Shown here one piece after another: positions 2,973-4,288 of a DNA stretch of 4,288 nucleotides. Both the position numbers and the translations under genes were made by a program. Position 1 is the stretch's first letter. Each line of letters starts with the position of its first letter. The notes under the pieces were generated by a model. That model saw only the letters and a list, made by a program, of their open reading frames with translations. It had not been told where the DNA came from and did not search any database. Origin of the DNA: Escherichia coli (GTDB lineage Bacteria > Pseudomonadota > Gammaproteobacteria > Enterobacterales > Enterobacteriaceae); NCBI RefSeq assembly GCF_003334385.1, contig NZ_QOWN01000087.1; one strand, written 5' to 3'.

Positions 2973-3038
2973 ATGAACAGTTACTAGTTATATTTTACAG
3001 TAATCTCCTGATGATACACGTTCAGCAGGAGGTTATTT

Positions 3039-3656
3039 ATGAATGAAAATGTAAGACACATATTGCTGGATGCAATTGAAAATAAGAAATCTTTAACGGT
3101 AATTTACTTAGGAGGTAGTCAGCCAGGAACATTGAGAGATATATCTCCGATAAGCATATCAGAAGATAAACTTAGGGCAAGATGCCATAGTACTGATGCT
3201 GTAAAGTTTTTTAATATTGGGAAAATACAACTACCTAGTGACTCGTCCATGATAACTGTGCCATATGGAAGTTTAGAGCTTAAAGTTTATGAGACGATGC
3301 AGAGTGTGTATGAGGACTTTCATAGCCTGTATCCGGAAGGTCGATGGGGAGTTGAATTTAATGATCATGAATTTGCTCTATTTGATTTTTTCAAAAATGG
3401 AAAAAGAAAAAAAACAGCATTTATGGCAATTCAGTTTATGGAAAGACATGAGGATGAAACAAGAACGGAGATAACAATTGATGTCAGTCTATCAGGTGTT
3501 GTGATTTCGGAGGGAGCCAGAACACCTAAAAGACGTCCGTGGGTTGTGACTGGTCCCGGGCGTGGAGAGCTAAGAACTTATTCAACGTTAGACAAAGCTG
3601 CTACAGAGTTTTTTAAGCGACTTTCATTGATGGTATCTATGGCGATTGAAACATAA
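3039..3656 (+). CDS. Hypothetical protein, 205 aa; AT-rich cargo (moron) gene downstream of Q; function unknown, possible N-terminal WYL/SH3-like beta-barrel
   Basis: ATG 3039 is preceded by a strong SD AGGAGG (3027-3032) with a 6-nt spacer; stop TAA 3654-3656. Hand-counted GC on sampled 60-nt lines is about 23-48%, against about 50-55% in the nin genes. An intrinsic terminator follows at 3746-3767. The N-terminal pattern LTVIYLGG..GTLRDISPISI..KLRARCH..VKFFNIGKIQL resembles WYL-domain beta-strand spacing (low-confidence inference). No catalytic motif recognised. Confidence 0.7.
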   Translation: MNENVRHILLDAIENKKSLTVIYLGGSQPGTLRDISPISISEDKLRARCHSTDAVKFFNIGKIQLPSDSSMITVPYGSLELKVYETMQSVYEDFHSLYPEGRWGVEFNDHEFALFDFFKNGKRKKTAFMAIQFMERHEDETRTEITIDVSLSGVVISEGARTPKRRPWVVTGPGRGELRTYSTLDKAATEFFKRLSLMVSMAIET

Positions 3657-3745
3657 GGGATATAAAGATACCGAGGAAATGATTTGTGTTATAACAAAAA
3701 CCATCTTAATCTGTTAAGAGTGGTCACTCCGTCATACAGCTTAAA

Positions 3746-3767
3746 CCTGCCGCCTGGCGGGTTTTTT
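3746..3767 (+). terminator. Rho-independent terminator downstream of the 205-aa cargo ORF
   Basis: Stem CCTGCC (3746-3751) pairs with GGCGGG (3756-3761), including one G-U pair; loop GCCT (3752-3755); followed by TTTTTT (3762-3767). Confidence 0.55.
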
Positions 3768-3798
3768 ATGCCCAAAATCGCGTCAGTACAGTAAACAC

Positions 3799-3806
3799 GC
3801 TGGTGG
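3799..3806 (+). other. Chi octamer 5'-GCTGGTGG-3' (intergenic)
   Basis: Exact octamer at 3799-3806, between the first terminator and the small ORF. Confidence 0.6.
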
Positions 3807-3889
3807 TTGCGAATACGGGTCTTTCAGCTTGCTGGCTTTTTCGACAAGAGTTATTGGTGTGTCACGTTAACCGGAAAAGGGAAAAAGAC

Positions 3890-4087
3890 ATGCTAAAACA
3901 GCAGGATATGACAGAAACCGCCAGAGTGGTGTTTAATGAATTAAGTGCCACCGAACCGGCGACAGTCGGGGAGATTGCGCAGAATACTTACCTTTCACGC
4001 GAACGCTGCCAGTTAATACTGACCCAGCTGGTTATGGCGGGTCTGGCAGACTATCAGTTCGGTTGTTACAGACGCCTTCCGCAGTGA
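3890..4087 (+). CDS. Small hypothetical protein (65 aa) with winged-helix/HTH-like segment; possible DNA-binding regulator
   Basis: ATG 3890 has a purine-rich SD-like AAGGG (3877-3881) with an 8-nt spacer; stop TGA 4085-4087. The ORF track extends to GTG 3803 with no SD, which I consider less likely. Segment TVGEIAQNTYLSRERCQLILTQLVMAGLA has the look of a helix-turn-helix recognition unit. GC is about 50%. Family not recognised. Confidence 0.5.
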   Translation: MLKQQDMTETARVVFNELSATEPATVGEIAQNTYLSRERCQLILTQLVMAGLADYQFGCYRRLPQ

Positions 4088-4101
4088 AGGCTTTTTTATT
4101 T
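4074..4101 (+). terminator. Rho-independent terminator overlapping the stop codon of the small ORF
   Basis: Stem GCCTTC (4074-4079) pairs with GAAGGC (4086-4091); loop CGCAGT (4080-4085); followed by TTTTTTATTT (4092-4101). The TGA stop at 4085-4087 spans the loop/stem junction. Confidence 0.6.
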
Positions 4102-4115
4102 GTGGTAAATGGGCG

Positions 4116-4123
4116 GCTGGTGG
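4116..4123 (+). other. Chi octamer 5'-GCTGGTGG-3' inside a G/T-rich tract
   Basis: Exact octamer at 4116-4123, embedded in gggcggctggtgggtgtggtggttgttg just after the second terminator. Confidence 0.6.
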
Positions 4124-4288
4124 GTGTGGTGGTTGTTGCTTTCCCGTTGCTGAAAAAGAAAGCATCAGGCGATTAGCAGGGTATCAGTTACCCGTTGAAA
4201 TTTTTAAATACCTCACAATTCAGGCGGTTGACTGTTGTCTGGTTTGCGGGGAGTTTGTTAAAAGAAACTGGCATGGTGAATCCCCCTG

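Follow-up and report, generated by a model that had tools for sequence, protein, structure and literature searches.

Organisation of the locus

The window analysed here is a stretch of 4,288 nucleotides of Escherichia coli DNA (RefSeq assembly GCF_003334385.1, contig NZ_QOWN01000087.1). It covers the right-arm regulatory junction of a lambdoid prophage, with all listed genes on the plus strand, and the element in question is PR', the late promoter that depends on the antiterminator protein Q. The Q gene is followed by a gene for a predicted stand-alone WYL-domain protein, here called the cargo gene, and then by a first intrinsic terminator, a small open reading frame (ORF), a second terminator and the beginning of an STnc100 small RNA (sRNA) gene (Table 1). 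The first-pass annotation of the sequence had found no obvious late promoter next to Q. It left open whether PR' lies in the gap directly after Q, with the cargo gene dependent on Q and both terminators tR'-like, or whether the cargo is inserted between Q and a displaced promoter near the window end. The best-supported position of the late promoter is 3684-3719, past the cargo gene and immediately ahead of the first terminator, an assignment that we hold with a probability of about 0.8. The idea of a cargo gene between Q and a displaced promoter is thereby retained, while the location proposed for that promoter, near 4240-4270, is not.

Table 1. Features of the window and the coordinates assigned to them.
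Feature	Position	Strand	Remarks
RusA	192-587	+	
KilA-N/antirepressor-like gene	738-1565	+	
DUF968/HNH gene	1567-2562	+	
Q antiterminator gene, short Q21-superfamily member, QuuD (DLP12)-like	2580-2972	+	130 aa from ATG 2580
Left copy of short direct repeat GAAAATGATT flanking cargo	2954-2963	+	direct reading and alignment
Gap between Q and cargo gene	2973-3038	+	no Q-type promoter
Cargo gene, stand-alone WYL-domain protein	3039-3656	+	205 aa
Right copy of direct repeat GGAAATGATT, junction of cargo and promoter module	3675-3684	+	
PR' -35 TTGTGT	3684-3689	+	17-bp spacing to -10; position weight matrix 8.1 bits
Predicted Q-binding element, palindrome TGTTATAACA (3687-3696) and A5 tract	3687-3700		covariation with Q helix
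PR' -10 TAATCT	3707-3712	+	conservation in 104 unique sequences
Invariant block TGTTAAGAGTGGT spanning the start site	3712-3724	+	
Predicted PR' start, A, 7 nt past -10	3719	+	homologous K-12 Cappable-seq start
Short PR' leader RNA, about 48 nt	3719-3767	+	
tR' (first terminator)	3743-3767	+	stem AAACCTGCC/GGCGGGTTT, loop GCCT, T-run
Small ORF, winged-helix-like	3890-4087	+	65 aa; phrog_331
Second intrinsic terminator, overlapping the small-ORF stop codon	4074-4100	+	scan: stem 4074-4091 and T-run
STnc100 (RF02076) sRNA gene, 5' part, cut by window end	4228-4288	+	

The Q gene, with the stop codon TAA at 2970-2972, is a member of the Q21/PF06530 family. Its product matches Pfam PF06530 over the full length (E 5.7e-49), shares about 60% identity with QuuD from the DLP12 prophage of K-12, and is a distant relative of the phage 21 Q protein (structures 6P18/6JNX; E 1.4e-08 with phmmer). 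Pfam shows a Sigma70_r4-like stretch at residues 67-102, and within it the segment that precedes the conserved AEGF is predicted to be the recognition helix.

The promoter module and its pairing with Q

Comparison of the window with the Q-proximal regions of Q homologues, a check proposed with the first-pass annotation, locates a conserved module at 3684-3767. The order shared by the modules is, from 5' to 3', an A-rich tract, a -35-like hexamer, a palindrome of 8-10 bp, an A5 or AT4 tract, six variable bases, TAnnnT, the invariant GTTAAGAGTGGT, a short transcribed stretch and an intrinsic terminator. PR' of the window begins 712 bp past the Q stop with the cargo gene between them, and combines the -35 TTGTGT, a 17-bp spacer and the -10 TAATCT with a predicted start at A3719. 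By position weight matrix (PWM) the -35 is the best in 3640-3730; the relatives have TTTACG, TTGCGG or CTAACG at this position. Over 104 unique module sequences the -10 hexamer shows T in 93%, A in 95%, three positions open to any base and a final T in 94%, which is the pattern expected of a -10 element.

The window has a single copy of the palindrome TGTTATAACA, located in the promoter spacer with its centre at about -27, and the final A of the palindrome opens the A5 tract at 3696-3700. The TGTTAAGAGTGGT block is invariant in eight loci that were found without using the block as a search pattern, and nearly invariant in the loci anchored on Q. It contains AAGAGT followed by GG (3716-3723), and AAGAGT is the sole start-proximal hexamer with the A and T needed for a pause. 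Two pause candidates can be read from the sequence, the invariant AAGAGT at -3 to +3 and CAGCTT at +19 to +24. The search of Rfam over the window gave no family at 3684-3770, the single match being STnc100 at the window end.

Both intrinsic terminators noted earlier are confirmed, the second by the terminator scan and the first by folding: a 9-bp stem pairs 3743-3751 with 3756-3764 and is followed by T6 (-14.7 kcal/mol). The first terminator is assigned as tR' because the leader of about 48 nt from PR' ends there; the suggestion that both terminators are tR'-like is limited to this one. This short leader is the counterpart of the terminated PR' transcripts known from phage 21 and lambda. The stems of the terminators differ between loci, and yet the leader measures 47-62 nt in almost all of the 83 unique sequences. 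In the relatives the genes further downstream encode an esterase, a holin and an endolysin; the window stops short of this region. Positions +2 to +17 of most PR' leaders form a 5' hairpin, GUGGU(N6)GCCAC, of which the window and DLP12 alleles have a weaker version.

A plus-strand primary start at U00096.2 576452 is recorded for E. coli MG1655 by Cappable-seq (PMC4782308, supplementary file 1). With an offset of +777 this is NC_000913.3 577229, the A of GTTAAG-A-GTGG in DLP12, 7 nt past the -10 TATGCT and homologous to A3719 of the window. The offset is known to consist of an IS1 of 776 bp and 1 bp, both upstream. Applied to the neighbouring strong start 576081, it places that start 7 nt past TATTAT, which corroborates it. 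The homologous start and the sequence conservation together point to a sigma-70 promoter 3' of Q, on the same strand and active without Q. The neighbouring start (score 90) is at NC_000913.3 576858 on the plus strand (4359 in locus L009, the DLP12 locus), about 370 bp 5' of the DLP12 module and beside the divergent nmpC start; its transcripts would enter the module and tR'. It is near the promoter region of the published reporter work on the DLP12 lysis cassette. The primer Pdlp12Fw of that work (PMC7918800) maps to L009 4254, and its designation '-121' leads to a start at about L009 4375, some 350 bp 5' of the module, so that it was set aside as representing a different promoter. The text of the Term-seq supplement of PMC7815308 has no entry for essD or for the coordinates of the DLP12 module.

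The palindromes of the module fall into nine classes that correspond one-to-one with nine classes of Q recognition helix, without exception in 104 loci (Table 2; helix segments were taken from alignment columns). The pairing is kept across more than 35 different intervening cargos. The window Q and QuuD have the N-terminal half in common and differ in both helix and palindrome. At locus L132 the Q protein shares 69% identity with that of the window across 120 aligned residues and has a different N-terminal half, and the terminator differs too; helix and palindrome nevertheless match those of the window. As judged from these alignments the palindrome follows the recognition helix of Q and not the rest of the protein. 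Since TGTTATAACA changes in step with that helix it is the predicted Q-binding element, to which Q would bind in the window. Linkage alone would produce some correlation but would not explain the dyad symmetry that nine unrelated palindromes retain at a fixed position, which points to a protein site.

Table 2. Palindrome classes and the Q recognition helices with which they occur.
Palindrome	Q recognition helix	Loci	Different Q-to-module distances
GCGTACGC	CSDGTIRKELQ	25	18
GCGGTCCGC	K(D/S/C)EK.IR.E, e.g. KKDEKLIRIEIQ	31	17
TACGTACGTA	CSDGYIGKRLQ	28 (DLP12 type)	9
TACGATCGTA	CSDT(C/Y)IGKRLQ	7	6
TACAATCGTA	RSDCWVGR(L/M)LQ	3	3
TGTTATAACA	window type	8	3
GGAATTCC	GISHTQILKRLQ	1 (phiP27)	1
GCGTTACGC	LSEGMIRIKFQ	1	1
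TCGTTACGA	CSEGKIRQKLM	1	1

Phage 21 is one of the closest systems known. Its Q-binding element (QBE) and unit sequences were taken from the annotated genome OL657228 (the unit of Yin, Kaelber and Ebright 2019). The Q protein belongs to the same superfamily, and the order of -35, Q site in the spacer, -10, start, short leader and terminator about 50 nt on is as in the window, with late genes downstream in both. The phage 21 promoter begins 7 bp past the Q stop, whereas that of the window follows after 712 bp and an intervening gene, and the two Q proteins match only at E = 1e-8, over residues 8-85. The pause element TAAGCT of phage 21 is at +2 to +7, while the comparable hexamer of the window is at -3 to +3; AAGAGT thus starts 9 bp past the -10, compared with 12-13 bp for the pause elements of lambda and phage 21. 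The palindrome starts 29 bp 5' of AAGAGT and the phage 21 QBE 28 bp 5' of its pause element, an analogy that is suggestive but not decisive.

The quuD-nmpC-essD region of DLP12 is the qsr' substitution region, with a Q-dependent lysis cassette (Rueggeberg et al. 2013, as cited in PMC7918800). It has in common with the window the Q subfamily, the module, the invariant TGTTAAGAGTGGT and a cargo between Q and module. It differs in the palindrome TACGTACGTA and the helix CSDGYIGKRLQ, in its cargo of a minus-strand porin gene and IS5 with a terminator after Q and before the cargo, and in having the module directly 5' of the holin gene without small ORF or STnc100. The PR'-6S RNA-tR' unit of lambda follows the same logic, with a constitutive promoter, a terminated leader and Q loading between -35 and -10, but has a Q of an unrelated protein family, a 194-nt leader, the pause AACGAT at +1 to +6 and a promoter 43 bp past the Q stop. 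StxS, the PR'-tR' short RNA of the 933W/Sakai-type Stx phages (Sy, Lan and Tree 2020, PMC7547250), is like the window leader a prematurely terminated late-promoter transcript made in the lysogen just 3' of Q. As a homologue of the leader it was rejected, with a Q of 144 aa, a PR'-tR' distance of 258 nt and no sequence similarity to the module.

Several observations weigh against the assignment of PR' to 3684-3719. There is no canonical sigma-dependent pause element at +1 to +15, and the QBE in phage 21 consists of two directly repeated 8-bp subsites, ATTGAGCA and AATGAGCA, where the window has a 10-bp palindrome. The single-sequence PWM gives PR' 8.1 bits, compared with 7.8 for a candidate in the gap after Q and 7.9 for one at STnc100, so that the promoter prediction proposed earlier for the gap and the window end does not discriminate between them, and several classes have a poor -35 (TAACGC, TAGCGC). 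The start at 576452 has a weak score of 1.7, slightly above the cut-off of the Cappable-seq authors; a leader of about 47 nt would be under-represented in libraries of this type. One locus, L068, has the module and no recognisable Q in 4.2 kb upstream; either its cargo is unusually long or Q has been lost. The covariation could partly stem from physical linkage and common descent, and for the window allele we infer Q binding, pausing and read-through alike.

The same points bear on the possibility that the module at 3684-3767 has nothing to do with Q and is a constitutive promoter with a small RNA, the palindrome correlation being due to hitch-hiking of adjacent DNA. Q and module were presumably adjacent ancestrally, so that linkage would be expected; the lack of a canonical pause element fits this explanation too, and short terminated phage RNAs such as StxS can themselves regulate. 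Hitch-hiking does not account for dyad symmetry at one position in nine different sequences, for a palindrome that tracks the Q helix rather than the N-terminal half in the comparisons with DLP12 and L132, or for a pairing that survives the many insertions. In DLP12, moreover, the module is the sole conserved element between Q and the holin gene. We therefore consider a unit independent of Q unlikely, and the two readings are compatible in that a PR' leader can also be an sRNA.

Layout in relatives, alternative promoters and expected transcription

The arrangement of Q, cargo, terminator, small ORF and terminator had been called unusual, which the relatives contradict. More than 170 loci have the module behind a short PF06530 Q gene, and the module is present in roughly 4,700 E. 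coli genomes. When IMG/VR was scanned with a pattern taken from part of the module, at least 120 loci were retrieved. Of 128 loci obtained with the module, 101 have a PF06530 Q upstream on the same strand. The distance from the Q stop to the module in these is 7 to 2997 bp, being below 110 bp in only 13 loci and 0.6-3 kb in the other 88. Most of the remaining loci have too little upstream sequence, and in three Q is cut by the locus end. Reverse retrieval by the Q protein gave 80 loci, with the module in 70, too little downstream flank in seven and diverged modules in three. A cargo between Q and PR' is thus the common layout for this Q clade.

Individual genomes illustrate the variation. Megablast shows that in 1720a-02 and PhiR5_1, which have the same Q, the sequence beginning at about 3685 here comes immediately after Q, and the cargo is absent. 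A GIY-YIG gene is located between Q and module in phiP27 and two minus-strand genes in Stx2a_1447, whose Q is of the class that goes with GCGTACGC, while E. coli FDAARGOS_144 has a diverged allele of the window cargo gene and then the module. E. coli UPEC 26-1 carries the window allele. The order in K-12 DLP12 is quuD, nmpC with IS5, the module and essD, the module being 120 bp before this holin gene. Because the interval between Q and PR' is a frequent insertion site, the lack of a promoter within 100 bp of Q is normal for this Q family.

The gap directly after Q is where PR' would be expected from the reference phages, and the premise that their late transcripts start close to Q is correct (42 bp past the Q stop in phage 21, 78 bp in lambda). 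The extent of the gap, 66 bp up to the cargo ATG at 3039, and the TATATT at 2989-2994 were given correctly, as was the absence of a convincing promoter from it. The consensus promoter scan covered 2500-4288 and gave no plus-strand sigma-70-type site, PR' included. The best PWM candidate of the gap is ATGAAC (2973-2978)-17-TACAGT (2996-3001) with 7.8 bits, which many sites in the window equal. If PR' were located here the cargo would be the first late gene and both terminators would be read through. Besides the canonical position, this would be consistent with a TAnnnT hexamer that is kept in the diverged FDAARGOS_144 allele (TATTAT) at the same distance from the cargo start. An 11-nt indel between the two alleles falls within the would-be spacer and removes any fixed -35, however, and the gap has neither a spacer dyad nor a repeat. 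The nearest terminator is 740 nt away, with none within about 50-200 nt. The gap sequence is without counterpart in the cargo-less phages, where Q abuts the module, and on this comparison the stretch belongs with the cargo and not with Q. A late promoter in the gap is for these reasons scarcely credible, and the cargo gene, which lies 5' of PR', loses the Q dependence once suggested for it. The gap may be a weak promoter for the cargo.

The other site proposed for a late promoter was TTGACT at 4228-4233, which as noted before has no good -10, the hexamer 17 bp downstream being GAGTTT (4251-4256). It is the conserved, promoter-like 5' end of STnc100. Rfam identifies 4242-4288 as the probable start of STnc100 with 30.2 bits (E 7e-4; gathering threshold 47), which corresponds to model positions 1-47 of 206 before the window ends, and full copies with 107-143 bits continue the same sequence in PhiR5_1, JLK-2012, UPEC 26-1 and FDAARGOS_144. 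The 5' element consists of TTGACT-17-GAGTTT, then GTTAAAAG and a second -10-like GAAACT with GG. The block TTTTTAAAT...TTGAC(T/A)-17-GAGTTT-GTTAAAAGAAACTGG is conserved in five loci and begins right after a terminator. This conservation suggests that the TTGACT element is probably a real promoter, for the sRNA.

As the late promoter it would start transcription at about 4263, and the STnc100 RNA of about 200 nt, which has its own terminator, would be a terminated leader like the 6S RNA of lambda. TTGACT-17-GAGTTT retains the essential A and T of the -10, GAAACT with GG starts 13 bp past the first hexamer, which is the -10-to-pause spacing of lambda and phage 21, and the upstream block is conserved right after a terminator in the relatives. 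A preprint ties the related sRNA PasD to lambda-type Q genes (PF03589), and in one locus an STnc100 fragment lies behind a stretch like the lambda PR' leader. The window has no lambda-type Q, however, and the TTGACT element does not covary with Q: spacer included, it is nearly identical (two substitutions) in PhiR5_1, UPEC 26-1 and FDAARGOS_144, whose Qs differ in predicted specificity. JLK-2012 likewise carries the element, and 1.1 kb upstream of it an exact phage 21 QBE immediately behind the phage's own Q21; DLP12, whose Q still has the module before the lysis genes, lacks the element. A late promoter at this site is very improbable. The single locus with the lambda-like stretch is L203 (5560-5707), where the STnc100 fragment is preceded by TGACTCAATGG...GTTAAT...CGCTCGTTGTGGT. 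On the evidence of this one locus STnc100 may descend from a lambda-type PR'-6S unit; the Rfam STnc100 model gave no match in lambda at E <= 0.01, and lambda 6S was rejected as a member of the family.

With PR' at 3684-3719, we infer the Q-dependent read-through and the mode of cargo expression as follows. In the absence of Q, RNA polymerase would make the leader of about 48 nt and stop at tR'. With Q present, polymerase would be modified at the promoter and read through tR', the small ORF, the second terminator and the STnc100 terminator, and the late transcript would continue into the esterase and lysis genes past the window. The small ORF, as the first gene downstream of tR', would depend on Q. 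The cargo gene would be outside the Q-dependent transcript because it is upstream of PR'. Most likely it would be the tail of the early Q transcript, to which a weak promoter of its own possibly adds, with the transcript ending at tR'. Co-transcription with Q is the simplest expectation since the scan finds no terminator between the two genes.

The late promoter unit of the window is of a known general kind, with a promoter, a terminator about 48 nt from the start and late genes beyond, and represents a widespread but poorly described variant. In this variant a cargo separates Q from PR', the predicted Q site is a palindrome and no pause element occupies the canonical position. If it operates as described, the cargo is not a late gene, while the small ORF, read-through into STnc100 and the lysis genes depend on Q. 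The pairs of helix and palindrome provide a testable map of Q specificity for the commonest Q type in E. coli prophages, a type that includes the Stx2 phages 1720a-02 and phiP27, in which Q-dependent transcription drives toxin production. Annotation pipelines that look for PR' beside Q will miss it in this family. The finding in the window itself is largely explained and ordinary, and it is the family-wide code of Q sites and the cargo slot that merit follow-up. A tentative generalisation, to which we give somewhat less than even odds, is that short QuuD-type Qs read a dyad site through a simple helix code with at least nine helix/palindrome classes, and that the pause signal of the promoter at which they load coincides in part with the start site. 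In thousands of E. coli prophages the interval from Q to PR' would then be a dedicated slot for defence-type and accessory genes, insulated from late transcription.

The cargo gene, its insertion slot and neighbouring genes

The cargo protein matches phrog_8498, a family of unknown function, with 3e-111 and the PADLOC WYL model with 1.5e-4. Its relatives number only seven in 5.8 billion proteins. The AlphaFold model has a predicted local distance difference test score of 74.5, and residues 1 to about 68 superpose on the WYL domains of CapW and BrxR with a root-mean-square deviation of 1.2-1.4 A over 65-69 residues; a further part of the model is rich in beta structure. No helix-turn-helix was found by Pfam or in the model. 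Regulators of the CapW/BrxR/DriD type have an N-terminal winged helix-turn-helix followed by WYL, whereas in the cargo protein the WYL fold is itself N-terminal. The cargo is thus predicted from the model to be the sensor domain common to the WYL regulators, outside the regulator family. The WYL domains of CapW, BrxR and DriD sense single-stranded DNA, and one may speculate that a phage-borne sensor domain without effector acts as a decoy or modulator.

A hairpin between CTCCTG (3004-3009) and CAGGAG (3025-3030) in the gap before the gene sequesters most of the Shine-Dalgarno sequence of the cargo, and an equivalent CCTCC/GGAGG pairing is kept in the 73%-identical FDAARGOS_144 allele. The conserved hairpin suggests translational control of the cargo.

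The direct repeat of GAAAATGATT and GGAAATGATT, identical at nine of ten positions, brackets the cargo insertion. In the cargo-less 1720a-02 and PhiR5_1 the sequence directly 5' of the promoter is AAATGATT. Since the left copy of the repeat falls within the 3'-terminal part of the Q gene, the final residues of the protein were altered by the insertion. In the relatives (loci L010-L129 and L130-L209) at least 35 unrelated gene sets occupy the same slot; the majority are minus-strand, and a small membrane protein is a frequent partner. Among them are the porin NmpC/Lc, a C5 DNA methyltransferase, a GIY-YIG protein and IS elements. Of ten slot cargos run through PADLOC, four hit defence families, either known or candidate: an OLD/Gabija-like ATPase (1e-35), the KAP NTPase family PDC-S20 (4.5e-177), PDC-S42 (3.6e-27) and an Aga_REase-like protein (5.7e-29). 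The interval from Q to PR' thus resembles a hotspot for morons or defence genes.

The small ORF downstream of tR' matches phrog_331 (2.4e-37) and is annotated as TrmB family in phiP27. It is found at the same position in 1720a-02, PhiR5_1, phiP27 and Stx2a_1447.

Upstream of Q, the best sigma-70-like PWM match outside coding sequence is TTGATA-17-TAAGTT at 658-686. It is located in the AT-rich 150-bp gap 5' of the KilA-N/antirepressor-like gene and is a possible internal promoter.

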